This document shows positions 10,421 through 51,314 of a stretch of 64,000 nucleotides of DNA, one piece after another. The position numbers and the translations under genes were made by a program. The notes beneath the pieces are model-generated. The model was given only the letters and a program-made list of their open reading frames with translations, did no database searches and was not told the DNA's origin. Positions within the stretch are counted from its first letter, which is position 1; every line of letters starts with the position of its first letter. Source of the DNA: Acidobacteriota bacterium (GTDB lineage: Bacteria; Acidobacteriota; Polarisedimenticolia; Polarisedimenticolales; JBBIHH01); contig JBBIHH010000004.1 of assembly GCA_037447115.1 (NCBI GenBank), forward strand, positions 71,060-135,059, given 5' to 3'.

Positions 10421-10772
10421 GGGGGCGAAATGGATTCGACGGGAAGGCAGAGGCGGGAGTAGCACGCCGAGGTCCACCGCCTCGTTAAACAGGTGGGCTT
10501 AAACATAGCTGGCAACGCTCAGCTTGCTCTCGCGGCTTAATTGACCGCGACGTCCGTCGGACGGCCCCGCCCGAGGCGGTCCGAACGGGCGCCGACAAAT
10601 CGGGCTGGTCCGGCGGCGACGCCCGTAGCCGCCGGGCGAGATGGACGGGCTGGCTGCACGACCGCCTGCCGCTCGGCGGTCGGGCAGCGAGACTGAACGG
10701 AGACGGCTAAGCGTGTAGAAGCTCCCGTGCGAACCTTTCCGGACGCGGGTTCGATTCCCGCCGCCTCCACCA
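10421..10772 (+). ncRNA. ssrA: tmRNA (transfer-messenger RNA)
   Basis: The 5' GGGGGCGAAATGGATTCGACGGG and the 3' GCGGGTTCGATTCCCGCCGCCTCCACCA give a 7-bp acceptor stem with G3:U70. The tag frame at 10508-10540, GCT GGC AAC GCT CAG CTT GCT CTC GCG GCT TAA, encodes AGNAQLALAA. Confidence 0.95.
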
Positions 10773-11249
10773 ACTTCGTCTGCTAGCGCCGGCGCCTGTG
10801 CTGCTACGGGCGTCGGCAGTAGCTCGGAGGCTGGCGGGACTCGCACCCGAGCGGAGCTCGCTGGCGCTCGGCTTCGAATCCCGCTCGCTTCGCTCGCGTC
10901 AGGGCGGGTTCGATTCCCGCCGCCTCCACCAACTTCGTCTGCTAGCGCCAGCGCCTGTGCTGCTACGGGCGTCGGCAGTAGCTCGGAGGCTGGCGGGACT
11001 CGCACCCGAGCGGAGCTCGCTGGCGCTCGGCTTCGAATCCCGCTCGCTTCGCTCGCGTCAGGGCGGGTTCGATTCCCGCCGCCTCCACCAACTTCGTCTG
11101 CTAGCGCCAGCGCCTGTGCTGCTACGGGCGTCGGCAGTAGCTCGGAGGCTGGCGGGACTCGCACCCGAGCGGAGCTCGCTGGCGCTCGGCTTCGAATCCC
11201 GCTCGCTTCGCTCGCGTCGGGGCGGGTTCGATTCCCGCCGCCTCCACCG
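10773..11249 (+). repeat. Three tandem 159-bp units abutting the ssrA 3' end; each ends with a copy of the last 28 nt of tmRNA (T-arm, acceptor 3' strand, ACCA)
   Basis: Units span 10773-10931, 10932-11090 and 11091-11249. They differ at only 3 positions (unit position 19 G/A; positions 129 and 159 A/G in unit 3). A degenerate further stretch runs to about 11330. Confidence 0.95.
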
Positions 11250-11389
11250 ACTTCTCTGCCCGCGCGAGCGCTCCGCCCGCTTCGATGCGGGTTCCCGCCT
11301 CCGCCACCCGCGGACCCACGGATTGGCTTCGATTCTCCCGGCGCCGCGCGGTTGTTGCGCGAACCTTCCCTGTGACACAATCTTGACCT

Positions 11390-12637
11390 GTGTCTCGACC
11401 CCGGCGCCGCCTCCCGATTCGCGAGCGCATCGACGCCCCGGACGCCCGCTGGGTGGTCTTTATCGCCGCCTGGGCCGCCCTCGGTCTTTGGCTCGCGGCC
11501 GATTTCCAGGCAAGCCTCGCCCAGACCCCTCCGGCGACCTCCGGGCCTGTCGCGATCCGGTTTTCCGTGGACAGTACCGACGGCTCGACCCGGGTCATCC
11601 TGACTCACGCGCGCGAGGTCTCCCGCTCCGTCGTCCCCGCGGGGGATCGGCTCCACGTCCTGTACAGCGACTCCGTCAGCCTCGATCCCGCCCAGGGCGA
11701 CATCGGTGACGGCCGCCTCCAGCGCTGGAAACAGGAAGATGCACGCACCGTGACGCTGTTCCTAGGTCCTGCCTTCGACCATTTCGAAAGTTTCGAGCTC
11801 AAGAACCCCTCGCGCCTCGTCTTGGACCTCATGGGCCGCCCGATCGGGACCCCCACGCCTGGCGCCCATCCTGCCCCCACGCCCGCGCGCCCGGAACCCA
11901 GCGCCGTGATCGTCATCGATCCCGGCCACGGCGGGGTCGAAGAGGGTGCGATCGGTCCCACGGGACTGCGGGAAAAAGAGGTCGCGCTCGATCTCGGGCG
12001 CCGCCTGCGCACTCTACTCGCGCGCGATTCGCGCCTCGGCGTCGTCCTCACGCGCGAGGACGACCGCTACGTGGACCTCGACGAGCGCACCGCCATCGCC
12101 AACTACAACCGCGCCGACCTCTTCATTTCCATCCATCTCAACGCTTCGCCGCGCCGCGACGCCTACGGGGCCGAAACCTACTTTCTTTCCCCCGAGGCCA
12201 CCGACGACGAGGCTCGCACGCTCGCCGCTCTCGAGAACCAGGCCTACCGCACGAGCCAGGCGCTGCGCGCCGCTACGGGCGAGGGGCAGCGCAGGACCCT
12301 GGAGCTGATCCTCTGGGACCTCGCGCAGAACCAGTACCTCGCGGAGAGCGGCCGCCTCGCGGAGGCCGTTCAGCGCGAGCTCGACGCGCTCACCGGCACC
12401 CGCGACCGGGGCGTGCGCCAGGCACCCTTCCGGGTGCTGATGGGCGCCACGATGCCCGCCATCCTCGTCGAAGCGGGCTTCATCTCCAACCCGGACGAGG
12501 AGGCGCGGCTGCGCACCGTGGCCTATCGGGAACGCATCGCCGAGGCCCTCGCGCGCGCCGTACGCGAGTTCCTGCGGCACCACGAAGTTCTCCGCGGCCG
12601 GGCCGATCCTGCTGCGGACGGGGCGGCGCACCGGTGA
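11390..12637 (+). CDS. N-acetylmuramoyl-L-alanine amidase (AmiC-like, with N-terminal AMIN-like region)
   Basis: 415 aa. VIVIDPGHGG, ANYNRADLFISIHLNA and GAETYFLS are amidase_3 motifs. An N-terminal signal/TM segment is present. Confidence 0.85.
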   Translation: MSRPRRRLPIRERIDAPDARWVVFIAAWAALGLWLAADFQASLAQTPPATSGPVAIRFSVDSTDGSTRVILTHAREVSRSVVPAGDRLHVLYSDSVSLDPAQGDIGDGRLQRWKQEDARTVTLFLGPAFDHFESFELKNPSRLVLDLMGRPIGTPTPGAHPAPTPARPEPSAVIVIDPGHGGVEEGAIGPTGLREKEVALDLGRRLRTLLARDSRLGVVLTREDDRYVDLDERTAIANYNRADLFISIHLNASPRRDAYGAETYFLSPEATDDEARTLAALENQAYRTSQALRAATGEGQRRTLELILWDLAQNQYLAESGRLAEAVQRELDALTGTRDRGVRQAPFRVLMGATMPAILVEAGFISNPDEEARLRTVAYRERIAEALARAVREFLRHHEVLRGRADPAADGAAHR

Positions 12638-13347
12638 GCGCCGACCCGCGGCCAGAGGCGCGTACCGACCGGTTGCGAGCCGCGGGGGCGGCCCTCGTTC
12701 TCGTGGGTTGCCTGGCGGTCGCCTGCGGCGGGTCTGCCAGGCAAAAGGTGGGCTCTTCTCCGGAAATCTCCGGGGCTTCCGCGGAACTCCCAGCGCTCCC
12801 GCCTTCCGCGGCCAGTCCGCAGCCGGCCTCCGCCACCGCACCCGCCGCCGCTCTCGCTTCGAGCGCCGGGAATCCCCAAGCCCCCGCCCCCCTCGCGCGC
12901 AGGCAGGTGCGTCTTTTCTTCCCGGCGGAGGATCGAGAGGGGCTGTGGCCCGAGGTGCACGAGATCTTCGACACCGCTTCGCCCGTGGACCGGGCCAAGC
13001 AGATCCTTTCCGACCTCATCTCCGGCCCGAACGAAGAAGGCTTGCTGCCCGTCTTGCCCCGCAACGCTCGCCTGCGGCAAGTTTTCGTTCTCGACGACGG
13101 TGTGGCCTGGGTCGATTTTTCCGAGGATCTGCGGACGAGCCTTCCCGGAGGGAGCGAGCAGGAGCTCCTCGCCGTTTATGCCATCGTCAACGGGCTGGCG
13201 CTCAACGTGCCCGAGATCGAGCGCGTGGGCATTCTCCTCGGCGGCCGGCCGTGCACGACGCTCAACGGGCACCTCGATCTGCGCCTTCCGCTCCCGCCAC
13301 GGCTAGATTTGCTCGCCACGCCCGCCGAGGAACCTGCCGTGCCCTGA
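12634..13347 (+). CDS. GerMN domain lipoprotein
   Basis: 237 aa. Lipobox LVGCLAVAC-GG. The C-terminal region (VRLFFP..., ILSDLISGP, AWVDFS, LAVYAIVN, GHLD) fits the GerMN pattern. The GTGA start overlaps the amidase stop. Confidence 0.65.
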   Translation: MSADPRPEARTDRLRAAGAALVLVGCLAVACGGSARQKVGSSPEISGASAELPALPPSAASPQPASATAPAAALASSAGNPQAPAPLARRQVRLFFPAEDREGLWPEVHEIFDTASPVDRAKQILSDLISGPNEEGLLPVLPRNARLRQVFVLDDGVAWVDFSEDLRTSLPGGSEQELLAVYAIVNGLALNVPEIERVGILLGGRPCTTLNGHLDLRLPLPPRLDLLATPAEEPAVP

Positions 13348-13425
13348 CTCTCGGCGACGTCGCGGCCCGGCCGTGCTACCATCTGCGCCGCGCACCGAAC
13401 CGGGAAAAGAAGGCACGCGCGGAGG

Positions 13426-14175
13426 ATGCTCGTGCGCCACGACGGCCGCCCCGACGATGCGCTGCGCCCCGTGCGCATCGAGCCCGACTACCTGTCGCAG
13501 CCGCTGGGCTCGGTACTCATCGCGCTCGGGGAAACGCGCGTTCTGTGCACCGCCTCCGTCGAAGAAAACGTTCCGACGTTCCTCCGCGAACTCAACGAAG
13601 GCTGGGTCACGAGCGAGTACGCCATGCTTCCCGCCGCCACCAACACCCGCAGCCCGCGCGAGGTCACTCGCGGCCGCCCCTCCGGCCGCACGATGGAGAT
13701 CCAGCGGCTCATCGGCCGCAGCCTGCGGGCCGTCGTCGATCGCAAAGCCCTCGGGCCGCGCACGCTCTGGGTGGACTGCGACGTCCTGCAGGCCGACGGG
13801 GGCACGCGTACCGCCGCCATCACCGGCGGTTTCGTGGCGCTGGCGCTCGCGCTTCGTCGCTTGCAGGAGCAGGGAGTGATCCAGGCTCCGGTGCTGACGG
13901 GACAGGTCGCGGCGGTGTCCGTGGGGATCCTGGAGAACCGGCCCGTCCTCGATCTCGACTATGTCGAGGACTCCGCGGCGGAGGTGGATATGAACGTCGT
14001 CGGCACCGACGACGGCCGCTACGTCGAGATCCAGGGCACGGCCGAGAGCACCCCTTTTGGCCGCGAACGCCTCCACGAGATGTTGCGGCTAGCCGACAAG
14101 GGGTTGGCCGAACTCCACAACGATCAGCGCGAAGCGTTGGGCGCGCGCCTGGAAACGCTGCTCGTCCCGCGCTGA
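13426..14175 (+). CDS. rph: Ribonuclease PH
   Basis: 249 aa. [48 protein letters not shown] and [14 protein letters not shown] are RNase PH signatures. Confidence 0.95.
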
Positions 14176-14193
14176 GCCGGTCGCGGTCCCTGG

Positions 14194-14799
14194 ATGAGCC
14201 GCCTCGTCGTGGCCACGCGCAATCCTGGCAAGCTGCGCGAGCTCGAGGGGGTGCTGCGCGGCGAAGGCATCGAGGTGTGGGGTCTCGATCGTTTCGCAGA
14301 AATCTCCCCTGCCGCGGAGACCGGCGCCACGTTCGAGGACAACGCCCGCCTCAAGGCGCTCCATGTCTCGCGCGCCGTTCCCTGGACCGTGCTCGCCGAC
14401 GACTCGGGCCTCGAAGTGGATGCCCTCGGCGGCGAGCCCGGGGTGCACTCGGCGCGCTACGGCGGCGAAGGTCTCGACGACCGAGCCCGCTGCGAGCGGC
14501 TGCTCCGAGCCCTTCGCGGCGTGCCCCCCGGGTGCCGCACCGCTCGCTTCCGCTGCGTCCTCGCCGTCGCGCGGGAAGGCGCGCTTCTCGCCACCTTCGA
14601 AGGCACCGCCGAAGGTCGCATTTTCGAGGAGCCCCGCGGCAGCGGCGGCTTCGGCTACGACCCTGTCTTTTTTCACGAAGAAGCAGGGTGCACCTTCGCC
14701 CAGCTCGCACCCGAGGAGAAGGCGCGCTACTCGCACCGCGGGCAGGCCCTGCGCCGGCTGCTCGAAGCGCTCCGCAGTGGCGCGCTGCGCGTCGGCTGA
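14194..14799 (+). CDS. rdgB: Non-canonical purine NTP pyrophosphatase (RdgB/HAM1 family)
   Basis: 201 aa. VATRNPGKLREL, ADDSGLEVDALGGEPGVHSARY, GGFGYDPVF and SHRG motifs. The rph-rdgB pairing is common. Confidence 0.9.
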   Translation: MSRLVVATRNPGKLRELEGVLRGEGIEVWGLDRFAEISPAAETGATFEDNARLKALHVSRAVPWTVLADDSGLEVDALGGEPGVHSARYGGEGLDDRARCERLLRALRGVPPGCRTARFRCVLAVAREGALLATFEGTAEGRIFEEPRGSGGFGYDPVFFHEEAGCTFAQLAPEEKARYSHRGQALRRLLEALRSGALRVG

Positions 14800-14951
14800 C
14801 GGTGCCTCCTCCGGTGGCCGCGTTTTGCGTGCCAGCCCGGGGGCGCGATGCTCTCCCGAAGCGCGCCCCTCCCCCTCGCCGGACCGCGCGCGGCTGCCGG
14901 CACGGACGCGGTTGCCGCGCGCAACCGCCGGACCCGCAAAGGCGCGCTCGG

Positions 14952-15060: not shown

Positions 15061-15135
<75 letters not shown>

Positions 15136-15417
15136 CATTTCGCGGCGTGCGAACCGATATTTGGAAGGACGTCCTCGGCGTCGTCGTCGAGGCCGTGGTC
15201 GGAAAGCTGAAGGTGGAAAGAAACGGGTCGAGGGGCGTGGCGAAGGCGGGGGCGTAGCCTCCCTCGTCCCCGAACTCGTCGACCTGCCTGCCGCGGCACA
15301 ATGGCTTGCGGCCCAGGCAGGGAAGGCCGGCACGACGCGGAGAACCGACGACCCACACGCCGGCGGGCCGCCGGGATCCGGCGGGTACCCCCAACCCCCG
15401 CCGCCCACGCCGGACCC

Positions 15418-15915
15418 CTCCGCGCCCTCTTCATCTTCGACCAAGACGCCCCCGTCTACGCGATCCTCAGCGAACTGCGCCGCGCCGGCTACCCCACCGA
15501 GCACCGCCGGGTCTGCACCGAGTCCGAACTCCAATCCGCCCTCACCTGCGCGCAGTGCGACATTGCCTTTCTCCCCGCCGCGCCGCAACGGATCGATCCC
15601 ACCGCCGCCCTGACCATCCTCCATGCCCGCGATCCCGATCTCCCGGCAATCGTGATCGGCGACGCCGCCCTCGCCGGCCACGCCATCCCCCTCGTCCGCG
15701 CCGGCGCGGCGGACTTCGTCACCATGGACAACTTGGCGCTCCCCCCCGGCGCCGTGGCCCGCGAACTGCGCACCTACCGCACGATCGCCGAACGCCGCCG
15801 CCTCCAGCAGGCCTTCCTCGAGGCCCGAAAACTCGAGGTCTTCGCCAGCCTCGCCGCCGGCATCAACCACGACTTCAACAACATCCTCATGGCCATCCCC
15901 GGCTTCGAGTCCATC
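15418..15915 (+). pseudogene. 3'-truncated sensor kinase fragment (degenerate receiver-like domain plus HisKA H-box only)
   Basis: LRALFIFDQDAP...PAIVIGD...GAADFV is receiver-like. It is followed by a coiled-coil and the H-box LAAGINHDFNNILMAIPGFES. Kinase homology stops near 15915, with no HATPase domain. Confidence 0.6.
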
Positions 15916-16400
15916 CGTTTCTGGCCGATCTCGGCAGGCGAGCGAGCGCAGGCGCCATTGGAGTTCGTGACCGTTGGGGTGCGTGTAGGGCTGTCGTGCG
16001 TGCAAGGGGTTGAGTTGATCGAAGCCGGCCTTGCGCTGCCACTCCGTCGCACGGACTGCACGCGCCGCTTGGAAAGCGGAGTCCGGACTGCGAACACAAG
16101 AGTGGGGCGCTGGGTTCCAGGCTCTGGCCTCGCTCGTTCTTGTACCGCCAGAACCGCCGCAGCTTTCGGACGAGCCGGTCGGGCAGGAAGAGGTCGGCTG
16201 CCCGGCGGCGCTTGGCGGTCTCGCGGCTGATCCAGACTCGGGTCTTGGGTGTTCCGTTGGGTGCGAAGATGTCGCCGACGTCGAGCGCGAAGAGCTCCGA
16301 CCCGCAACCCGGTCCGGAGGGCCATCGAGATGCTCCGGTGGTCGCGGGGGTGCTTGGCGGTCGCGCGGAAGATGAGGCATCGTTCGTCCGGGATCCGTGT
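15900..16400 (-). pseudogene. Tyrosine recombinase/integrase remnant (catalytic domain only, at least one frameshift)
   Basis: One minus frame reads ELFALDVGDIF...PKTRVWISRETAKRRRAADLFLPDRLVRKLRRFW...PLLCSQSG. A second minus frame continues AGFDQLNPLHARQPYTHPNGHELQWRLRSLA, a degenerate HxLRH...LGH region. No N-terminal core-binding domain. Confidence 0.5.
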
Positions 16401-16475
16401 TTCACTCTGCGGCGGGGCGGTTCCAATGGTACCCCTTTTTCCCGGATGGCTGGAGCGAGTGCCTGAGATAGAATC

Positions 16476-17432
16476 TTGCGTATGCGGTTTGACCGGAACA
16501 AGTTCATTCTAGCGGTCCGGTGGGCCGTGGCCGTGTTAATCGTTGGTGCCGTGGCCGGTCATTTTGCCCGCCTGCTCGCCCGTTCCGAATTATGGGAGAA
16601 CCCTTTCACGGTTCGACCCCTTTGGATCCTCGGTACGGTCGCTGGATATGGGCTCGCATTTGCGATTTGGGGGGCGTTCTGGGCGCGGTTGCTCCGAGGC
16701 AGGCGCGCCCGAGTTCCGTCTTGGCCAATTGCACGGGCGTACTTTGTGAGCCAGCTGGGAAAGTACGTGCCCGGGAAGGCCTTGGCCATCGTCCTTCGCG
16801 CTCTGTTGATACGCCCGGCGGGCGTGCCATTCCAAATCGCTGCGATCACAGCCGTTTATGAAACGCTCACGGTCATGGCATCGGGATCATTGCTCGCCGG
16901 CGGTCTGTTGCCGCTCGTCGAGATCGGATCGCCCGACCATCACTGGAGAAATCTGGGGCTGCTGGCCCTCGTGGGAATTCCTTTATTACCTGGTATCTTC
17001 AATCGACTCGCACCCCGTGCGGCTCGTCTTTTTATGTCGTCGGATGCCCCGCCGACACCCAGACTGGGATTCGGGGATCTGATCCTCGGACTTGTTCAAA
17101 CCGCCATAGGCTGGTGTTTCCTCGGCTTCAGCCTGCTCATGCTTCTTCGAGCATTCGGCGAGTGGCGATTCTCGCTCGTATCATGCACGGTATTCGTGGC
17201 TTGCTCGTATGTCGCCGGTTTTTTCACGCTCCCAGCCCCAGGAGGTCTTGGCATTCGTGAGGTGCTGTTGCAGCAGCTTCTTGCCGGCGGACTCGGTGAA
17301 TCGTGGGGCGAGGTGAGGGGAGAGGCATTGGCCGTACTCGTCGCACTGTCCCTTCGTTTCTGGTGGACCGTGACCGAAGTCGGGCTCGCGGGTCTGGTCT
17401 ATCTATTGCCACAAGGGACGCGACGACCATGA
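16476..17432 (+). CDS. Lysylphosphatidylglycerol-synthase-TM-region / flippase-like (UPF0104) membrane protein
   Basis: 318 aa polytopic protein with YFVSQLGKYVPGKA and PAPGGLGIRE motifs typical of this family. The sequence is visibly more A/T-rich than its flanks. Confidence 0.6.
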   Translation: MRMRFDRNKFILAVRWAVAVLIVGAVAGHFARLLARSELWENPFTVRPLWILGTVAGYGLAFAIWGAFWARLLRGRRARVPSWPIARAYFVSQLGKYVPGKALAIVLRALLIRPAGVPFQIAAITAVYETLTVMASGSLLAGGLLPLVEIGSPDHHWRNLGLLALVGIPLLPGIFNRLAPRAARLFMSSDAPPTPRLGFGDLILGLVQTAIGWCFLGFSLLMLLRAFGEWRFSLVSCTVFVACSYVAGFFTLPAPGGLGIREVLLQQLLAGGLGESWGEVRGEALAVLVALSLRFWWTVTEVGLAGLVYLLPQGTRRP

Positions 17433-17491
17433 GCCGGACGATCTCCCTTGTGGTCTCCGTCTTCAACGAACGCGAAAGCACGGGCCGCTGA
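17429..17491 (+). pseudogene. Family-2 glycosyltransferase stub (first about 20 codons only)
   Basis: MSRTISLVVSVFNERESTGR-stop. ISLVVxVFNE is the canonical GT2 N-terminus. An ATGA overlap with the upstream gene indicates a former coupled pair. Confidence 0.55.
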
Positions 17492-21960: not shown

Positions 21961-24675
21961 TCACGGGCAGGCCGCGGTGTTCTGCTGCGGCCTGCAAGCC
22001 GCCGTCGCGGCCGGTCGCTCCTGCCCTGCGCCGTCCGTGCCGTAGCTTCCTTCGAAGCTCGGGTCGTGGGCCACGACGAGGAAGTAGCGGTCGCCCCCCT
22101 GGGGCGTGATCGTCGCCGAGGGGGCCCCGCCGCTGGAGCAGAGGTTGGCCTCGTGGCTGTACCAGTTTCCCAGCGCGCCTTCGTACACCGCGTAGTCCGT
22201 CCCGTCGCCGCACGTCGGTCCCCAGCTCAGGTCGAGATCGATTCCGTTCGGGTTCTTGGCAACAGTCAGCCAGCCTGTGATTTTCCCTGGCGCGGCGCTC
22301 GGTGGGAGGGGGGAATTCGTGCGCATGCCGAGGCGCAGGTTGGCGAGCGGTGCTTGAGGCGCGAAGGCCGCGTAACCGAACAGCCACGAACTCCCGGCGG
22401 CGCTCACCGCTGGGGTATCCTCGGGCTCGCTCGTCTCCGCGACCGCGAAGTTCTCGGGATCCGTCACGCTCCCGTCCGCCGCCACGCGCGCCGCGAAGAG
22501 ATCGCCCCGGTGCTGCTTGGGATAGGGTTCGTTGCGGTGGTCCACCCAGGTGACCACCCACTGCGTGCCGTCCCAGCCCGCGGCGGGAAGCGCTTCCCGC
22601 ACGGTGCCGGAGGAGATCCGGATGCCTGCCGCGCTGTCGAGGAGGGTTCCGTCGGCGAGCACGCGGCGCCCGAAAATGCGGTCGTGTTGCCAGACCACCA
22701 GGGCCGTGTCGCCGCCGACGGCGAGATGCGGCCGGTCCCGATGGCCGCCATCGCAGCAAGCCGAGATATCGAACTTGGTCTGCAGCAACCCGTCCTGGCC
22801 GATGAAGGCGCCGACGATCCTCGAGCGCGGGTTGTCGTGGGTGACGTTTTGCTCCCACACGGCGAACCAGCGGCTGCCGAAGGCGGTCACCCGCGGCCAC
22901 ACGTCGAAGTTCTGCCCGATGCGCTGGCGAGGCCCCAGGACGTTGCCGCTCGTGTCCACGCGGATGGCGTAGGCGTAGCGGATGTCGAGGCTGACGTCGT
23001 TGTCCGTGCCGACCACGAGGAACATCCCGTCGAGGCCCGCGACGTCGGGCATCTGTCCCGGCATGATCGGAAAAGGCGCCGCGTCGAGACGCGCGCCATC
23101 CGCCCCGAGGCGCCGGCCGTAGATCGTGCCGCGGCCCTCGCGCGTGCGCTCCCACACCACGAGATAGCGCGAACCGTCCCAGCCCGCAGCCGGGGTCGTG
23201 AGATCGGTCTCGCCGTTGCCCCCGGCGACGAGGATCGGTTCCGGGTCGATCGGGTCGCCGTTGGCGTCGAGCCGCTGGGCCATCACGAAGGTTTCTTCCG
23301 ACGCCTCGCGCACGAAAACGACCAGGTGGTTCGTGCCGTCGAAGGCGAAGCGGGGGCGGCTCTGGCGGGGCGCCCCAAGACTCACCGCGGCGGGGGTTCC
23401 AGCCTGGCCATCGGCGCCGACCACGATGCGCTGGATGTCGTCGCGGTCGCGCTGCGTCAGGACGACGCCGGAGGGGGCGCCCGGGGCGAGCGCCACTTCG
23501 GCACCGGAGTCGGCGACCTTGTGGGGCTGGCGTTCCGCCAGCGTCCCGTTGGTGCGCACGCGCCTGACGAACACGTCCGCGTCCACGGGGGCGAGGCTCA
23601 GTTGCTGCGCGTAGCCCACGAAGTAGTAGGACCCGTCCCACGCCACGTCGGGCTCGAACGTCGTGTAGCCACCGTCCTCGACGAGGGCGATCCCGCCCGG
23701 ATCGAGCACCGCGCCCTCGGCGCTGACCCGGGAGCCGTAGAGCTGGGAGAATCCGAAGTAGCGACCCTCGTGCCAGGCGACGAAGAACGCGCTGCCGTTC
23801 GAGGCGACCGCAGGGTTGTCGGGATCGCTCGGGCTGTAGAGGTTGATGGTGAACGGTTCGCCGATCGGGTCGAGCGCCGTGTCGAGCAGCTGTCCCCGAA
23901 TCACCTTGTCCAGGGAAAGGTCCGCCTCTCGCCACACCATGAGGTAGCGTCCCGCGGCGAAGGCCAAATCCGCTTTCTGCGGATCCGAGTTCCAGGTGTC
24001 GCGCCTGAGTGGCCGGCCCCCGGGATCGAGGACGGTACCGTCGGCGGCCACCCGGGCGCCCTCGATCGTGTAGACCGACGTCGCGGCGTCCAGGTCGCGC
24101 CAGGCGACGATCCAGCGGGTCCCGTCGCTGGCCGCGCTCCAGGGCCGCGAGTCTGCGGAGGGCTGGTCCCCTCGATGGACCAGGATCGGCGTGCCGTCGA
24201 GCACCGCGCCGTTCGGCGCCACGCGCAGGCCCAGGACGTCCACGAAGTTGCCGTGCTCGCGCTCCGCGGCCCAAACGACGAGCCAGTTCTGGCCGTTCCA
24301 GGCCGCCTGGGGCGCGTACTGGTGATAGTCCTCCCGGGAGAGAAGGATCGGTGTCGTGTCGAGCAGGTTGCCTTCGTTGTCGAGGCGCGCCGCGTAAACG
24401 TCCGTCATCGTGCCCCGGCCCTCGCCTTCGTAGGTCGTCCCCGGGCCGCCGGGCACCACGAGCGACGACCGCCGGTCGGCCCAGACCACGAGGTAGCCGT
24501 TGGCGCCGCGCGAGATGCGCGGCCGTTCCTGCGTTTGAGCGGCTGCGCGCGGCGTGCTGTCTCCCGGAAGGAAGAAAGGATCCGCGAGTGGAGGGGACTC
24601 GGCGATGGCCGGCCCGGCGCTCCCGAGGATCTCGATCGCGACGGCGAGACCCGAACCCGACCGGCCGACGGCCAT
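21961..24675 (-). CDS. Secreted repeat protein: about 14 repeats of about 55 aa (likely beta-propeller) plus a Cys-containing C-terminal beta-sandwich-like domain
   Basis: The recurrent unit fits the pattern P.vA.dG..(Y/W)LVVW......(D/E)(V/I)YG.RV..dG..LD. Examples are GYLVVWADRR...DVYAARLDNEGNLLD, NWLVVWAAE...LGLRVAPNGAVLD and RYLVVWERT...IYGRRLGADGARLD. N-terminus ...GLAVAIEILGSAGPAIA/ESPP. Alternative GTG start at 24711. The ORF-track start at 25770 is over-extended. Confidence 0.7.
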   Translation of the reverse strand: MAVGRSGSGLAVAIEILGSAGPAIAESPPLADPFFLPGDSTPRAAAQTQERPRISRGANGYLVVWADRRSSLVVPGGPGTTYEGEGRGTMTDVYAARLDNEGNLLDTTPILLSREDYHQYAPQAAWNGQNWLVVWAAEREHGNFVDVLGLRVAPNGAVLDGTPILVHRGDQPSADSRPWSAASDGTRWIVAWRDLDAATSVYTIEGARVAADGTVLDPGGRPLRRDTWNSDPQKADLAFAAGRYLMVWREADLSLDKVIRGQLLDTALDPIGEPFTINLYSPSDPDNPAVASNGSAFFVAWHEGRYFGFSQLYGSRVSAEGAVLDPGGIALVEDGGYTTFEPDVAWDGSYYFVGYAQQLSLAPVDADVFVRRVRTNGTLAERQPHKVADSGAEVALAPGAPSGVVLTQRDRDDIQRIVVGADGQAGTPAAVSLGAPRQSRPRFAFDGTNHLVVFVREASEETFVMAQRLDANGDPIDPEPILVAGGNGETDLTTPAAGWDGSRYLVVWERTREGRGTIYGRRLGADGARLDAAPFPIMPGQMPDVAGLDGMFLVVGTDNDVSLDIRYAYAIRVDTSGNVLGPRQRIGQNFDVWPRVTAFGSRWFAVWEQNVTHDNPRSRIVGAFIGQDGLLQTKFDISACCDGGHRDRPHLAVGGDTALVVWQHDRIFGRRVLADGTLLDSAAGIRISSGTVREALPAAGWDGTQWVVTWVDHRNEPYPKQHRGDLFAARVAADGSVTDPENFAVAETSEPEDTPAVSAAGSSWLFGYAAFAPQAPLANLRLGMRTNSPLPPSAAPGKITGWLTVAKNPNGIDLDLSWGPTCGDGTDYAVYEGALGNWYSHEANLCSSGGAPSATITPQGGDRYFLVVAHDPSFEGSYGTDGAGQERPAATAACRPQQNTAACP

Positions 24676-24938
24676 GCGGATTTTCTCGAGAAAAGAAGCT
24701 CTGCCCCTCACAACGGCACCCCCCGCTTCACCCGGCGGAAGAGAAAAGAGCTTCCTCGTGCCGCTTTGATACCTGGGGGCGAGGCTTTCCGGACGCCTGC
24801 CGGGTTCGCGCTCCCCGCGGAGCGTCCCCCTCCCAGGCAAGCTGTCCTCGCGTCGCGCACTCGAGCGCCCGAACCCCGCTTCCGGGACCCGGGCGCGCCA
24901 TGCGGGACGAAAGAAGAAAACCCCTGGCGCCGCCGGCT

Positions 24939-25676
24939 TCAGTTGGCTTCGACGACCAGGTAGAACGCCAGATCGGGAGAGGTCGTGTCCGTCAAGCTCG
25001 TCGCGGTCGTCGCCGGGGCGAGGTTGGTCGGTACGGGCATGGCGGGGGTCGTGTCGCGAAACACGTTCCACGGTCCGACGCCGCCCGTCCACTGGAGCAC
25101 GGGGTTCAAGTTCGCGTCCTTGTTGAGTAGAAGCTGGATCGGGCTCACGACCGTCAGCGTGCCGTTCATCGTGTCGAAGGGCGGGTTGTGGTGGAGCCGG
25201 CAGATGAAAGGATAGGCCGCCGGTGCGACGGCGGCGTAGTGGCACACGCTCCACTCCAGAGGGCTGTCGATGTTCCCCGTCTCCCAGTCGCACGGTGGCG
25301 TGATATTGGTGCTGGTGCAGGCGTCCGCTTGGTTGCATCCGCTCCCTGTGGTCACCTCCGTCGAGGAGTGCCACGGCGTGATGTCGCTCTTGTGCCAGCG
25401 GATGCACTGGAAATTCCAGGGAACCCCGGGTGTTGCGCTCTCGCCTTCGATGCGCGGGTTTTGAGGGACGAACGCCGTCGGGTTCGTCATCTCGACCGTG
25501 ATGAATCGCGGCGAGGCGATGTTCTGGCACTGGACCGGAAGATTGGGGTTGCCGGCGGCGTCCTTGCCCACGGCGCAGTTGCTGGTCTTGCAGGTCGTCG
25601 TCTGAGCGAGCGCGGCGGGCGAGCCGAGCCCGCCGGCAAGGTAGAGACCGAAGAGAACGATCGCGGCACGGCGCAT
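24939..25676 (-). CDS. Secreted cupredoxin-like (putative type-1 copper) protein with C-terminal extra domain
   Basis: Signal peptide MRRAAIVLFGLYLAGGLGSPAALA/Q. YPFICRLHHNPPFDTMNGTLTVV fits the cupredoxin ligand-loop pattern Y.F.C..H...M.G.L.V. Many Cys in the N-terminal half. Confidence 0.6.
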   Translation of the reverse strand: MRRAAIVLFGLYLAGGLGSPAALAQTTTCKTSNCAVGKDAAGNPNLPVQCQNIASPRFITVEMTNPTAFVPQNPRIEGESATPGVPWNFQCIRWHKSDITPWHSSTEVTTGSGCNQADACTSTNITPPCDWETGNIDSPLEWSVCHYAAVAPAAYPFICRLHHNPPFDTMNGTLTVVSPIQLLLNKDANLNPVLQWTGGVGPWNVFRDTTPAMPVPTNLAPATTATSLTDTTSPDLAFYLVVEAN

Positions 25677-25833
25677 GGGACCCCTCCCGGTAGCGGAAAC
25701 CGATCTCGACAACCGACCCTATACCCCCCCGATTCCCTCCCCGGGTGCGAGAGGGGGGACAGTGATGCACCTGAGAGGCGTGCGTTCCCGCCGCGGGCCT
25801 AGCGCGGGCTCGGGTCGGGTGAGATAAGGATCC

Positions 25834-46852: not shown

Positions 46853-47220
46853 GGTCTCGAGGCTCGATGCTGGAGCAGGCGCTGCGCGCCGTCGAGGAGG
46901 CCGGTGAGGGACTCGCTCGAGCCATCGACTCCGGCGATCCCGGCGCGCTCGGCGCGGCCGTCGAGGCGCGCGGCCTGCGGGTGGCGGAGCTCGCGGGCGT
47001 GCTGGGGGAGGTGGCGCGCTCCGCGGACGCGGAGCTGCGGCGCCGGGCCGCCGAGGGTTGCCGGCGCATCGAAGCCCAGGCGGAAGAGCTGCGCCGCGCC
47101 CTGGAGCGACACCTCGCGCGCTGCCGCATGGATCTGCAGCAGAACCGGAGCGTGGGCCGCGCGCTGCGCCGCTACGCGGCGCTCGAGCCCGAGAAGCTCG
47201 CGTTCGACCGCTCCGGGTGA
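46849..47220 (+). CDS. Hypothetical helical protein in the FliT position (putative flagellar chaperone/regulator)
   Basis: 123 aa, Ala/Arg/Glu-rich and helical. The GTGA start overlaps the fliS stop. The assignment rests on position only. Confidence 0.4.
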
Positions 47221-48293
47221 GCCGGCTCGAGCCAGCCCTCCCGCTCGAGCTTCCGCAGCTTTTCCAGGAACGTCGTACGCTTGAGCTGCAACAGCTCGGC
47301 GGCGCGAGCTTTGTTGCCCTTGCTGATGCGCAACGACTGCAGGATCAGCTCGCGCTCCAGGTGGCTGACCGCCGCTCGCAGGGACAGCCCCTCCTCGGTG
47401 AGCACCATCGCGGCGAGCCCTCCCGGCCGTTCCTCCGCGCCCGAGATCTCGCGCGGCAGATGCTGAGGGCCGATCGCCTCCGCCGCCCCGGCCATGATCG
47501 TCGCGAACTCGACGGCGTTCTCCAGCTCCCGGACGTTGCCGGGCCAGGAATAATGCAAGAGCGCGCGCAGCGAAGCCGAGGAGAAAACCTTCGGCCCCCG
47601 CAGCCCGAGCCGGGCTGCCACGCGCCGGGCGAAGTGCTCCGCGAGCGGCGGGATCTCCTCCGGCCGCTCGCGCAGTGGCGGCAGGGTCACGGGAAACGTG
47701 CTCAGGCGATAGTAGAGGTCCAAGCGGAAGAGCCCTTCGTCGACGCGCCGACGGAGGTCCTCGTTCGTGGCGACGACGATACGAACGTCCACCCTCCGCC
47801 CCTGGTTGGCCCCGACGCGGATCACGTGACGGTCCTGCAGGACCCGCAGCAACTTGACTTGCGCGGCGGCGCTCATCGTGGCGATCTCGTCCAGAAGCAG
47901 CGTCCCGCCGTCGGCCTCCTCGAAGCGTCCCATGCGGTCGCGCTCGGCCCCGGTGAAGGCGCCGCGGACGTGACCGAAAAGCTCGCTCTCCAGCAAATTC
48001 TCGGGGATCGCGCCGCAGTGCACCCGCACGAACGGCCCGCGCCGGCGCGCGGGATGGCGTTCATGGAGCAGGCGCGCCGCGAGCTCCTTGCCCACCCCGC
48101 TCTCGCCCATCAGCAGCACCGTCGTGTCGAGCGGAGCCGCCCGCTCGAGCTGCTCCACGACGAGCCGCATGGGCTCGCTGGCGACGATCATCGAGGTCGG
48201 GGTTTCGGTTTCTAGCGGATGCGATGCGTCCCAGGTCCGCGCTCCATCGCTCGTGCGTTCGCTGCCCGGACGAAGGCCACCCGATCCTTCCAT
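47172..48293 (-). CDS. Sigma-54-dependent transcriptional activator lacking an N-terminal sensory/receiver domain (AAA+ plus Fis-type HTH only)
   Basis: ATG at 48293. [12 protein letters not shown] (Walker A), [15 protein letters not shown] (GAFTGA), GGTLLLDEI (Walker B), RVVATN, NVRELEN, and a C-terminal HTH ...[24 protein letters not shown]. Only about 35 aa precede the AAA+ core. Confidence 0.85.
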
Positions 48294-48363
48294 CGCCAAC
48301 CCCCTCCGCTTCCCACGGTTCCCCTTTCGCAGGTGCGTGTCGCTGGAGCATCCAGAGTTGTGG

Positions 48364-48391
48364 AATATTGCCGCGGCGAGGGAGAAGTCAA
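48364..48391 (-). promoter_or_regulatory. Candidate sigma-70 promoter for the sigma-54 activator gene
   Basis: On the minus strand: TTGACT (48391-48386), a 16-nt spacer, then AATATT (48369-48364). About 70 nt upstream of the ATG at 48293. Confidence 0.3.
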
Positions 48392-48512
48392 GTCGGAAAA
48401 ATTTATACCCGCGCGAGTCTACCTGCCGCGCGGTTTCCCGTGGAACCGACGCCCGAGCTGCTCCTGGCGTCGGATCCCCGTCACCTGCCGCGCGCCGCTC
48501 GGGGATTTTCGC

Positions 48513-48528
48513 GGGCAAGCGCTTTGCT
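48513..48528 (+). promoter_or_regulatory. Sigma-54 promoter-like site upstream of the TPR/kinase/regulator operon
   Basis: GGGCAAGCGCTTTGCT. GG at 48514-15 and GC at 48526-27 give exact GG-N10-GC spacing. Consensus is TGGCACG-N4-TTGCW. Confidence 0.5.
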
Positions 48529-48543
48529 CCGGAGCGCGCGGCG

Positions 48544-50184
48544 ATGCGGATCGGTTCACTTTCGCTCGCGCTTTGCTTGCTGTCCGCAGGCGCAGGCGCG
48601 GACACCGCGCCGGGTTCGAGCGCGGACGCAAAGCTTCTGGCGGAGCGGCTGGATTGCCGGGACTGCCCGCCCGAGGCGATCGCCGAAGCGCGGCGCTCGC
48701 TGCGCCAGCTCGCTGCGGGGCCGACCGAGGCGCCCGAGACGCGCGCCGCCGTCCTGGCCCTGGCCGAAGCGGCCGCGAGAGGCGAGCCCAACCCGGAGGG
48801 CGTGGCCGATTTGATGGCGGCCGTCACGCTCTATCCTGAAGAGCCCGCAGCGGCGCGGTGGCTGCCCGTGCTGGCGCAGGCGCAGCTCGCCACAGGCGAC
48901 GCCCTGGGCGCGCACTTTACCTTCGTGCGCTGGCTGGAACGGGGGGGCGATCTCGATCCGCAGACGCGGCTCCTCGCGGCGGAGAACGCCGTCGGCGTGG
49001 GGGACGAAGCTGCGGCTTTCCGCTGGATCGGCGATCTCGACGCGGCGTCGCTGCCCGAGGAGGCGCGCCACCGTCTGGCCCGCGTGCGCCTGAGAGCGGC
49101 GACCGCCCTGGGGCGGGACGAGCTGGCGCGGCAGGCGCTGCACGAGCTGAGCGCGGGGGAGCTCGCGCGGGATGCAGAGGCTCTGCTCGCCGCGGCCCAG
49201 TTGCTGGAGCGTGCCGGCGAGAGCCAGCAAGCCGCATCGTTGTACGAGCGGTTCGCGAATGTCTATTTGGATCACGCGCGCTGGGCCGAGGCGGCGGTCG
49301 CGCTCGGGCGCGTGCGAGCTGCGCTGGGGCAGCCCCAGGCAGCGCGGGCGAGCTTCGAGTGGGTTCTGGAGCGGGCGCCCGGGACCCTGGCAGCGGATCG
49401 GGCGCGTTTCGCCCTGGCCCGGCTCGACGCGGGCGGCGACCCTCGCGGGCTTCTGGCCCGGGGGCTGGCGGTGGCGGCGGGCGCGGCGACCGCCCGAGGC
49501 GCGGAGGAGATCTGCTGCGCGCTGCTCGACGCGGCCGCCGAACAGCTCGGCCCACTGGCGGCCGCCGAGGTCGCCGGACGGCTCGCTGCGAAAGAAGGAT
49601 TCGCGGGCCTCGCGGCTCGCAAGTGCGCTGCTGCCAGGATTCAAGGCTGGGCCGCGGGGCTGCTCGAGGGGGCGGACACCGTGCGGGCAGCCGCGCTCGC
49701 CCGTGTCCTGGCCGATGGCGGCTTCAAGGTGCCGCGGCAGACGCGGACGCTTCTGGATCGTGCGCGGGCCTCCCTGGGGCTTGTGCCCCTGTGGGATCCG
49801 GCGCGCGAGACGCTGCTCGCCGAGGCCCGAGCGGAGGCCGCTGCGGGCCGCTGGGAAGGAGTCCACACCCGGCTCGCCCCGGCGCTGGCCTCGCTCGACC
49901 CCACAGCTCCGGAGTGGGCCGTCATGGCGCGCCTCGCTGCCGAGGCCCGCTGGCGCCTCGGCGAGCGAGCCGAAGCGCTCGCACAACTGGAGCAGGCGCT
50001 GTCGCGGGTACCGGAGACTTCGCGCCGGCCGCTGCTCGTGCTGCGGGCCGATCTGCTGTTTGCCTCCCGGGCCTTCGACGGAGCGTGCGCCGCCTACGCC
50101 GAGGCGGCGCGGCTCGATCGCTCCCCCTGGGTGGACGCCCAGCTCGCGCGCTGCCACGCGCGAGCCTCGGGGCAGGTGCCGTGA
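48544..50184 (+). CDS. Secreted TPR-like repeat protein
   Basis: ATG at 48544. Signal peptide [19 protein letters not shown], then about 520 aa of Ala/Leu/Arg-rich helical hairpin repeats. The stop overlaps the kinase GTG start (GTGA). The ORF-track start at 48088 is over-extended. Confidence 0.7.
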
Positions 50185-51314
50185 GTACGCAGACGCTGTC
50201 CCGCGAGAGCTTGCTTCACGAAGCGTTCGCGCGGTTCGAGCGCGCCGCCGTGCACTTGCGGGAAGAGCACGAGCGGCTGCGGCGCAGGGTCGCACGCCTC
50301 GAGGCACGTCTCGTCGGCGCGCACCGTCGCCTGCGTGCCGTCCTCGACGCCCTCGATACGGGGGTGGCGGTCGTCGCGGCGGACGGGACGATCGCCGAGA
50401 CCAACCCCGCCTTCGATCGCCTGGGCCTGGCCCGGAGGGGGGAGCGGCCCGGGGGCGTGCTGGGGGAGCTGATCGCCGGGGCCGGCCGCCGCCGCGCCGC
50501 CCGCTGCACCCACGCCGTCGGCGGGCAGGAACGGCATTTGTGCGCCTCGCTGCTGCCGGTAGGAGGCGAGAGCCAGGGATGGGTGCTCGCGGTGAAAGAT
50601 GTCACCGACCTCAGGCGCGAAGACGAAGAGGGCGAACGCCGGCAGCGGCTGGAGGCCCTGGGCCGCCTGGCGGCAGAGATCGCTCACGAGGTGCGCAACC
50701 CCCTCGGGAGCATGCGGCTTTTCGCGGGCATGCTGGGCCGGGATCCCGATCCGTCCACGGTGCGCGAGGCGGCGCAGCAACTGCTGGCGGCGGTGGCCTC
50801 GCTCGAGCGCACCGTCTCCAACTTGCTCGCCTTCGCCCGGCCGCCGAGAACGCGCCGCGTCGAGGTGGAACTCGTCGCGCTGGCGAGGGAGATCTGCGGT
50901 TGGCTCGCGCCCGCGGCGGCGTTGCGCGGCGTGTGCCTGGAGGGCCCCGAAGGGGGGCCCGCGACCGTGCACGCCGACGGGGAAGCGCTGCGGCAGGTGC
51001 TGCTCAACCTGGTGGGCAATGCCTTGGCCGCCTGCCGCCGGGGTGATCGGATTCGGGTGGCGCTCCGCGGCGGGTCTCGGGACGTCGAGCTCATCGTGCA
51101 GGACACCGGGTGCGGCATCGCGCCCGAGGATCTGCCGCGCGTGTTCGATCCCTTTTTCAGCAGACGAGAGGGCGGGACGGGTCTCGGGCTCTCCATCGTC
51201 CATCGCGTCGTCGAGGATCACGGGGGATGGGTCGGCATCGAGAGCCGGGCGGGAGCGGGCACGACCGTGACGGTGCGGCTGCCGCGCCGCGGCAGCGGAG
51301 GGAGATCTCGGTGA
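50181..51314 (+). CDS. Cytoplasmic PAS/HisKA/HATPase sensor histidine kinase (FlrB/FleS-like)
   Basis: GTG at 50181. No TM segments. PAS-like LRAVLDALDTGVAVVAADGTIAETNPAF. H-box LAAEIAHEVRNPLGSM. N-box LLNLVGNALAA. G-boxes VQDTGCGI and GTGLGLSIV. Confidence 0.9.
   Translation: MSTQTLSRESLLHEAFARFERAAVHLREEHERLRRRVARLEARLVGAHRRLRAVLDALDTGVAVVAADGTIAETNPAFDRLGLARRGERPGGVLGELIAGAGRRRAARCTHAVGGQERHLCASLLPVGGESQGWVLAVKDVTDLRREDEEGERRQRLEALGRLAAEIAHEVRNPLGSMRLFAGMLGRDPDPSTVREAAQQLLAAVASLERTVSNLLAFARPPRTRRVEVELVALAREICGWLAPAAALRGVCLEGPEGGPATVHADGEALRQVLLNLVGNALAACRRGDRIRVALRGGSRDVELIVQDTGCGIAPEDLPRVFDPFFSRREGGTGLGLSIVHRVVEDHGGWVGIESRAGAGTTVTVRLPRRGSGGRSR

Follow-up and report, generated by a model that had tools for sequence, protein, structure and literature searches.

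The transfer-messenger RNA (tmRNA) gene ssrA of an uncultured Acidobacteriota bacterium (GenBank assembly GCA_037447115.1; Polarisedimenticolia, Polarisedimenticolales, JBBIHH01) is followed directly by a short tandem array that contains repeated copies of the 3′ end of the gene. The locus was studied within a stretch of 64,000 nucleotides, referred to here as the window, which spans positions 71,060 to 135,059 of the forward strand of contig JBBIHH010000004.1 and whose own numbering is used throughout. An earlier reading, made from the letters alone without database searches (the sequence-only reading), had placed ssrA at 10421-10772. ARAGORN, which predicts the tag peptide GNAQLALAA, returns the gene at exactly these positions on the + strand, and the Rfam tmRNA model RF00023 matches over its full length (193.4 bits, E 1e-78). 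The acceptor stem contains the G3:U70 pair, listed in the predicted pair table as nt 3 with nt 346 (G3:U346). The final 28 nt of the gene, GCGGGTTCGATTCCCGCCGCCTCCACCA (10745-10772, + strand), comprise the whole T-arm, the 3′ strand of the acceptor stem and the terminal ACCA, and constitute the block that recurs downstream. Outside the array, no further copy of this 28-mer is present in the 64-kb window. The first base of the T-stem opens the block, which thereby matches the T-loop/junction class of attachment sites in tRNA and tmRNA genes (tDNAs) (PMC4383910; PMC3146451). Such a starting point would fit the identity block of an attachment site used by an integrase that crosses over in the T-loop, as expected from what is established for these enzymes.

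The array consists of three head-to-tail units of 159 bp on the + strand, namely unit 1 (10773-10931), unit 2 (10932-11090) and unit 3 (11091-11249). The sequence-only reading had described them in this form, and Tandem Repeats Finder (10745-11271, period 159, 3.3 copies, 98% matches, no indels, score 1005), a repeat search (three 192-nt copies at an exact spacing of 159 nt and 98-100% identity) and direct comparison of the units all agree with it. The units were likewise correctly said to differ at only three positions, all of which are A/G transitions: unit position 19 reads G/A/A in units 1/2/3, position 129 reads A/A/G and position 159 reads A/A/G. Accordingly, unit 1 is marked by a G at position 19 and unit 3 by a G at positions 129 and 159. 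The 28-nt end of ssrA closes unit 1 (10904-10931, + strand) and unit 2 (11063-11090) without a mismatch, but matches at 27/28 positions in unit 3 (11222-11249). The claim that every unit carries this end and rebuilds the CCA terminus thus stands for units 1 and 2 only; unit 3 ends in CCACCG, and its CCA is therefore not rebuilt.

Beyond the third unit the resemblance weakens, as had been observed, and gapped alignment identifies the segment at 11250-11308 (+ strand) as an old, diverged fourth unit with many internal deletions. The alignment scores 57 against 25 +/- 4.6 in shuffles, and none of 1000 mononucleotide shuffles equals it. The fourth unit opens with ACTTCTCTGCCCGCGCGAGCGC, which corresponds to unit nt 1-23 with an identity of 19/23, so that the repeat runs for about 23 nt past the last 28-mer; the remainder is made of pieces of unit nt 107-121, 131-138 and 147-159 (GCGGGTTC..CCGCCTCCGCCA), in which the T-arm carries a deletion and the CCA is mutated. 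When the 150 nt past unit 3 (11250-11399, fourth unit included) were compared with the ssrA 3′ end, 34 of 2000 shuffles equalled the score. Judged from these alignments, the array appears to combine three young units with an older one that has decayed at the distal edge. Decay at the edge is usual for arrays that are homogenised by unequal exchange. Two further possible scraps lie past the fourth unit, the T-arm-like GGCTTCGATTCTCCCGG at 11325-11341 and GCGCGAACCTTCC at 11357-11369, which resembles GTGCGAACCTTTCC of ssrA; the two stand in the wrong relative order.

The 131 nt that separate consecutive 28-nt blocks, termed the filler, themselves read as a patchwork of two decayed pieces of the ssrA 3′ end, of which one is inverted and the other direct. 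The inverted fragment occupies unit nt 54-83 (10826-10855, - strand, in unit 1; also 10985-11014 and 11144-11173) and corresponds to ssrA nt ~318-349, that is, the acceptor 3′ strand, the T-arm and the CGGA upstream of it. Aligned as GGAGGCTGGCGGGACTCGCACCCGAG--CGGA against GGAGGC-GGCGGGAATCGAACCCGCGTCCGGA, it matches at 27/30 aligned positions, with a score of 17 against 8.2 +/- 1.3 in shuffles and no equal among 2000 dinucleotide shuffles. The direct fragment, at unit nt 70-119 (10842-10891, + strand; also 11001-11050 and 11160-11209), corresponds to ssrA nt 300-347 and retains the helix 2 3′ strand, a T-arm that is broken (CGGCTTCGAATCCCGC) and CGCTTC, which resembles an acceptor strand. 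It scores 18 against 8.3 +/- 1.3, again with 0/2000 shuffles equal to it. By these alignments, each unit holds three pieces derived from ssrA: the inverted fragment and two direct ones, the first old and the second perfect. Only these two sub-alignments of the filler to ssrA proved robust and were retained. A resemblance of the whole filler to ssrA nt 232-347 was dropped because its score of 21 (3/1000 shuffles) was equalled by an unrelated GC-rich flank from a related genome (locus L002, introduced below). Likewise, an interpretation of the left end of the filler as an island arm akin to the attL side of L002 is not claimed, as the shared ACTTC... similarity is weak and equalled by 60-139 of 2000 shuffles.

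The sequence-only reading had further proposed that each unit could encode a CCA-ending, tRNA-like RNA of about 106 nt, with GGAGGC (unit nt 54-59) pairing with GCCTCC (nt 150-155) as an acceptor-like helix and CGGG-ACTCGCA-CCCG (nt 63-77) forming a D-arm-like hairpin. All of these motifs are present as described, and the third base of GGAGGC is indeed an A opposite U, giving the helix an A3:U70 in place of G3:U70. Their assignment fares differently, since the supposed acceptor 5′ strand and D-arm are instead the reverse-complement copy of the ssrA acceptor and T-arm. It follows that the complementarity extends over more than 20 nt and takes in the T-arm, a pairing for which a tRNA design has no need. 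For the unit, RNAfold predicts a small hairpin at nt 10-51, a long imperfect hairpin at nt 54-155 with the direct ssrA copy predicted at its apex, and an ACCA tail; the long hairpin, folded without constraint, has -62.5 kcal/mol, whereas the cloverleaf-like fold reaches -48.8 kcal/mol when enforced and is thus 13.7 kcal/mol worse. The unit folds below shuffles on both strands (z -3.8 on one, -3.6 on the reverse), and because the two fold about equally well, the palindrome is better regarded as a feature of the DNA than as an RNA-specific structure. In the window, ARAGORN reports only a tRNA-Asn and the tmRNA, and no tRNA in the units. The best Rfam match of the tRNA clan in a unit is to tRNA-Sec, at 17.5 bits (E 5.6) where the gathering score is 47; tmRNA_permuted reaches 25-27.4 bits (gathering score 47) over model positions 36-68 only, which represent the T-arm/CCA piece, only the last 12 nt of RF00023 match, and ARAGORN reports no tag. 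Under permissive filters, Rfam returns for a single unit, besides the T-arm/CCA piece, only meaningless microRNA-hairpin matches. Running the Rfam tmRNA and tRNA models and RNAfold on a single unit, as had been recommended, therefore yielded sub-threshold matches and a long hairpin, and neither ARAGORN nor Rfam supports a tRNA-like RNA. The tRNA-like features are most likely by-products, the T-arm and acceptor strand deriving from the copied gene end and the 5′ strand from the inverted copy.

The smaller hairpin, hairpin 1, lies in unit 1 at 10782-10823 (unit nt 10-51, + strand; RNAfold) and its element recurs at 10941-10982 and 11100-11141. In unit 1, G19 (window 10791) is predicted to give an uninterrupted 13-bp stem, GCCGGCGCCTGTG/TACGGGCGTCGGC, which includes three G-U pairs, and A19 in units 2 and 3 is predicted to introduce a bulge. 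The ssrA-proximal copy of hairpin 1 may be constrained, the basis for this being one nucleotide. As it has no T-run, hairpin 1 is not a canonical intrinsic terminator, and a scan of the array for sigma-70-like promoters and intrinsic terminators found none. When the first 95 nt of unit 1 are appended to ssrA, the native tRNA-like domain is predicted to remain intact in the minimum-energy fold.

Several other classes of element were considered and rejected. The period of 159 is divisible by three, and two long open reading frames (ORFs) run through the array; the sequence-only reading had called these phantoms, rightly so by their composition and by their lack of any Pfam match. Array ORFs have a GC content of 0.66-0.75 at third codon positions (GC3) and 0.66-0.76 at second positions (GC2), whereas the genes of the window have a GC3 of 0.80-0.95 and do not exceed 0.61 in GC2. 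The translations of the two long ORFs resemble GC-rich sequence read off-frame. A protein-coding tandem repeat with units of 53 amino acids is rejected on this composition. An array of clustered regularly interspaced short palindromic repeats (CRISPR) is incompatible with 131-nt intervals that are identical save for two of the three differences in the array, and Pfam scans of the window ORFs found no cas-family domains. A diversity-generating retroelement, prompted by the fact that all three unit differences are A/G, was rejected because the same scans contain no reverse-transcriptase domain and the repeats do not lie in a gene. Lastly, the GTTRRRY core of an integron attC site was not seen by eye.

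The surroundings of ssrA were compared with those in related genomes, the nearest of which are Acidobacteriota metagenome-assembled genomes (MAGs). Eighty loci were gathered through the metalloenzyme-superfamily gene that lies upstream of ssrA, ARAGORN was run on 32 of them, and four (L002, L004, L007 and L008) proved to have ssrA beside that gene; the flank available past ssrA is between 543 nt and 3.6 kb long for L002, L004 and L007, and 28 nt only for L008. The last 33 nt of ssrA are identical in the four relatives and the window, the adjacency of the metalloenzyme gene and ssrA is kept in 4/4, and nuoN lies upstream in L002, L004 and L008. Downstream of ssrA, the DNA is different in every relative examined (L004:1-3596, L007:1-1729 and L002:1-543 against window 10773-14800), and synteny breaks exactly at the ssrA 3′ end. 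In L002, an uncultured Acidobacteriota MAG (CAZVOE010000146.1), a tyrosine integrase gene (PF00589, E 4.6e-10) on the opposite strand ends about 60 nt past ssrA; its HxxR and Y motifs are visible, the contig ends within the gene, and the whole looks like an island or prophage integrated at ssrA. Past ssrA, L004 has genes for a helix-turn-helix protein (HTH_20), an AHSA1 protein and a kinase, and L007 has a GIY-YIG gene. Neither the filler nor a second ssrA 3′ end occurs in the available flanks of the four relatives. Together, the synteny break and the L002 integrase indicate that ssrA is an integration hot spot in this clade, which agrees with the use of tmRNA genes as targets of islands elsewhere (PMC4383910, PMC3146451). 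One isolated similarity was noted in L007, where GCGAGCGAAGCGAGCGCGTCGAAG (L007:1636-1661, minus strand; 69-94 nt past ssrA) matches the reverse complement of unit nt ~100-125 at 24/26 positions. This match is equalled by 25/2000 shuffles and may be a chance or low-complexity likeness; it falls inside one of two long GC-rich palindromes situated directly 3′ of ssrA and upstream of the GIY-YIG gene.

The region past ssrA is most likely a graveyard of displaced ssrA 3′-end fragments left by the integration and loss of mobile elements. More specifically, we assign a probability of about 0.7 to the reading that the array is an attachment-site scar of such fragments, amplified by unequal recombination; the array DNA is most likely without dedicated function. 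The proposed history would begin with elements encoding tyrosine integrases that entered the T-arm/3′ end of ssrA, each leaving a direct copy of the 3′ end downstream. Deletions would then have removed the elements and left the 131-nt filler with its older direct and inverted ssrA fragments, with a copy of the 28-nt block and the roughly 23 nt that follow it on either side. From these direct repeats, the anatomy of which is observed, replication slippage or unequal recombination would finally have produced the array; the exchange could have depended on RecA, or an integrase could have worked in trans between attL and attR (attL x attR) on sister chromosomes. Continued exchange would keep the proximal units at about 99% identity, while the distal unit would have escaped homogenisation and decayed; the 159-bp amplification itself would be recent. 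Should transcription read through from ssrA, each unit would be expected to fold as a small hairpin followed by an imperfect hairpin of about 100 nt. Of the two options that the sequence-only reading had left standing, the relic of paired attachment sites amplified by unequal crossover fits the decayed ssrA content of the filler, the fourth unit, and the synteny break and integrase of the relatives. The other, a selected array of tRNA-like elements, is opposed by the inverted copy, the less stable fold, the lack of a model match and the loss of the CCA in two of four units.

When held against the features by which such scars are recognized, the locus has an intact tDNA with a same-orientation 3′ fragment downstream (Islander, PMC4383910), a fragment that here recurs three times, and in relatives the same gene is used by an integrase-bearing element (PF00589 in L002). 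Islander also looks for an integrase within an interval of 2-200 kb; the intervals here measure 131 nt, and none of the window ORFs tested encodes an integrase. This and several other observations weigh against the scar interpretation. As the sequence-only reading had remarked of the immediate surroundings, integrase and mobile-element genes were not found among the ORFs scanned across the 64 kb (Pfam, tblastn), and since the 28-mer is also missing outside the array, the element history is inferred and not seen. The z of about -3.8 for the unit fold is compatible with a selected structure. To our knowledge, integrase-mediated integration alone gives no inverted copy of its site; one candidate route by which the inverted fragment may have arisen is foldback, or a switch of template, at the palindromic T-arm. 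The databases searched hold no close relative, the protein of the upstream neighbour having its best homologue at 60% identity among 5.8 billion clusters.

Parallels in other sequence collections were also lacking. A pattern for two tmRNA 3′ ends spaced 110-140 nt apart, which as a control matches the window array three times, found 0 instances among 241 million records of JGI metagenome contigs, both in its clade-exact form and in a degenerate form covering all tmRNAs; short-spaced tmRNA-end duplicates likewise numbered 0 in viral contigs. Three pieces of the filler have no exact match in IMG/VR viral contigs, and blastn with the filler returned nothing from phage or plasmid records. Extra copies, such as a dispersed repeat of the repetitive extragenic palindrome (REP) or miniature inverted-repeat transposable element (MITE) kind would have, are missing from the 64-kb window and were not found in these viral, phage and plasmid collections. 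The missing JGI parallel is a further point against a scar of this origin; either short arrays of this relic kind are rare, or assembly loses them. Repeats such as these tend to break short-read assemblies. Moreover, Islander discards intervals that are shorter than 2 kb, lack an integrase or contain inverted fragments (PMC4383910), and relics such as the ssrA array would for that reason be absent from standard catalogues.

The sequence itself comes from a short-read, metagenome-assembled contig of 136,775 bp, and the count of three units rests on that assembly. It is unlikely, on balance, that the array or its copy number is an artefact in which a repeat loop was traversed, or strain variants merged, such that the real locus has a single unit or some other number. 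The period of 159 exceeds the k-mers that assemblers usually employ (a general point), and the A/A/A unit could be traversed any number of times; three units are the minimum-path solution of the assembly. Run SRR11582143 is also available as an independent Logan assembly (k=31), in which the sequence is interrupted at either edge of the array, at 10765 and 11219; from the MAG sequence alone, a k=31 graph would be expected to break at 10774 and 11189. This discrepancy suggests that the reads hold variants not represented in the MAG, for example a unit with G129 but A159, or other strains. Against an artefact, the two Logan contigs (L001 on the left, L082 on the right) are 100% identical to the MAG sequence where both cover, and the right contig begins exactly at the unit-3-specific G, which confirms both that variant and the junction of unit 3 into the fourth unit. 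The assembled junction between units (filler end, 28-mer, filler start) requires reads that hold it, so that at least two units should be real, and the three variant combinations (G-A-A, A-A-A and A-G-G) imply at least three units if all are within one genome.

One functional explanation, which is very unlikely, holds that the hairpins serve as a termination, insulation or 3′-processing module of ssrA and that triplication strengthens a block to read-through toward the downstream amidase operon. The two transcription units do lie on the same strand, 680 bp apart; hairpin 1 begins 9 nt past the CCA and is most perfect in the unit next to ssrA, and L007 too has two GC-rich palindromes directly past ssrA, as judged by eye. 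The array nevertheless contains no T-runs and no matches in the terminator scan, the arms of hairpin 1 are not significantly palindromic (178/2000 shuffles), and inspection by eye of the downstream sequence of L002 and L004 shows no comparable hairpins. One nucleotide difference is, moreover, too little from which to argue selection, and the ssrA-derived content of the units is left unexplained. It is highly improbable that the units serve, each as a functional gene or as a processing unit, to make a CCA-tailed mimic of the tRNA-like domain of tmRNA. The strong promoter of ssrA would supply read-through, and an RNase P cut 5′ of G54 and trimming to the CCA would give an uncharged hairpin of about 106 nt, whose A3:U70 makes it no substrate for alanyl-tRNA synthetase, and which could titrate SmpB, RNases or the CCA-adding enzyme. 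For such an RNA speak the position of the array directly past a highly expressed gene with no canonical terminator between, the fold of nt 54-159 (z -4.0 against shuffles), and the closure of nt 54-155 by the 6-bp GGAGGC/GCCTCC helix on a 7-bp GGCGGGA/TCCCGCC helix followed by single-stranded ACCA, a predicted stack that resembles an acceptor/T minihelix. The complementarity stems, however, from an inverted duplication through the T-arm, the reverse strand folds about equally well (z -3.6), no tRNA or tmRNA model reaches its threshold, unit 3 ends in CCG and unit 4 is degraded. Nothing alike follows ssrA in the relatives' flanks and no duplicate at 110-140 nt spacing was found in the JGI metagenome contigs, while the units are too alike for covariation to be read. 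In its most developed form, more improbable still, read-through would be processed into an array of ~106-nt, CCA-tailed decoys of the tmRNA end that cannot be alanylated. That RNase P would cut at G54 and 3′ trimming reach the copied end to leave a mimic of the tmRNA acceptor/T minihelix deserves equally little credence, as does the choice of SmpB, the CCA-adding enzyme, RNases or integrases that recognize the site as its targets.

The array is flanked by housekeeping genes. Upstream lie nuo genes and the metalloenzyme-superfamily gene (PF01676; 9396-10268, - strand), and downstream the gene for an N-acetylmuramoyl-L-alanine amidase (PF01520; 11453-12637, + strand) is followed by Germane, RNase PH and Ham1 genes. 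The recorded start of the amidase gene is 11453, with a possible upstream GTG at 11390, and the gene is not adjacent to ssrA in the relatives. Within it, 12247-12292 forms a weak tandem repeat with a 24-nt period (2 copies, 78% match, score 55). Further along, the tRNA-Asn (GTT) gene at 15061-15135 precedes about 1.3 kb without a recognisable gene, the ORFs there having no Pfam matches, and then, within 15061-17450, a stretch of lower GC content (0.58-0.64 against ~0.70) that holds an LPG_synthase_TM ORF with an atypical GC3 of 0.63. A repeated fragment of the tRNA-Asn gene was not found, and evidence for an island at 15061-17450 is lacking. A 1269-amino-acid ORF at 21961-25770 (- strand) has gene-like composition (GC3 0.80) and no Pfam match at E <= 0.001. 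The segment 43212-63882 is a flagellar cluster with flagellin, FliD, a FliT-like protein, an FlgC-like rod protein, FliF, FliG, the FliI ATPase, FlgD and FlgE, and it includes two sigma-54 activators (47172-48827, - strand; 51110-52627, + strand).

Displaced tDNA fragments, the attR copies left by islands and prophages in tRNA and tmRNA genes, were reportedly described by Williams in 2002 and 2003. Like the displaced fragments catalogued by Islander (PMC4383910), the array presents a same-orientation copy of the 3′ end past an intact ssrA, a block that starts at the T-stem, and a gene at which synteny breaks in relatives, with a tyrosine integrase next to it in one of them. Unlike them, the interval is 131 nt long, contains neither integrase nor cargo, and is repeated three times at ~99% identity. 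The ssrA islands of Dehalococcoides (McMurdie et al. 2011, PMC3146451) offer another parallel in their multiple direct repeats of the ssrA 3′ end downstream of the gene and their insertion in the T-loop region. Their 20-bp repeats bound kb-scale islands, many with a serine-recombinase module, and no island is duplicated within a strain (PMC3146451), whereas the repeats described here bound identical 131-nt fillers without genes. Tycheposons (10.1101/2020.12.28.424599) resemble the locus in that degenerate, partial copies of the target gene accumulate beside the target through successive integration and decay, but their remnants are scattered and unique, and a homogenised tandem array is not described for them (10.1101/2020.12.28.424599). 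Both direct-repeat arrays at ssrA and decayed element remnants beside tRNA and tmRNA genes are thus documented (PMC3146451; 10.1101/2020.12.28.424599). The ssrA array, if real, shows that attachment-site scars can hold nested direct and inverted fragments of a gene end, and its tandem attB-like copies would give ssrA-targeting elements several landing sites.

With tRNA-like domains, minihelices and permuted tmRNAs, the units share a T-arm and an acceptor 3′ strand, an ACCA in units 1 and 2, and a complementary 5′ strand upstream; they differ in having no cloverleaf and no G3:U70, and in that their 5′ strand arose as the 3′ end copied in inverted orientation. Annotation of such regions accordingly calls for caution, as their tRNA-like ends and long ORFs are by-products of repetition and not genes, and a new biological question would be raised only if expression and processing of the units came to light. 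In general, direct repeats that flank a segment can lead to its tandem amplification by unequal crossing-over. Arrays formed in this way share with that of ssrA the head-to-tail order, the perfect register without indels, and near-identical inner units beside a diverged unit at the edge. What sets the present array apart is that its seed repeat is the attachment-site block of an essential RNA gene and, being part of ssrA, places one end of the array under purifying selection. Provided that the array is real, such a block can seed a small, homogenised satellite.

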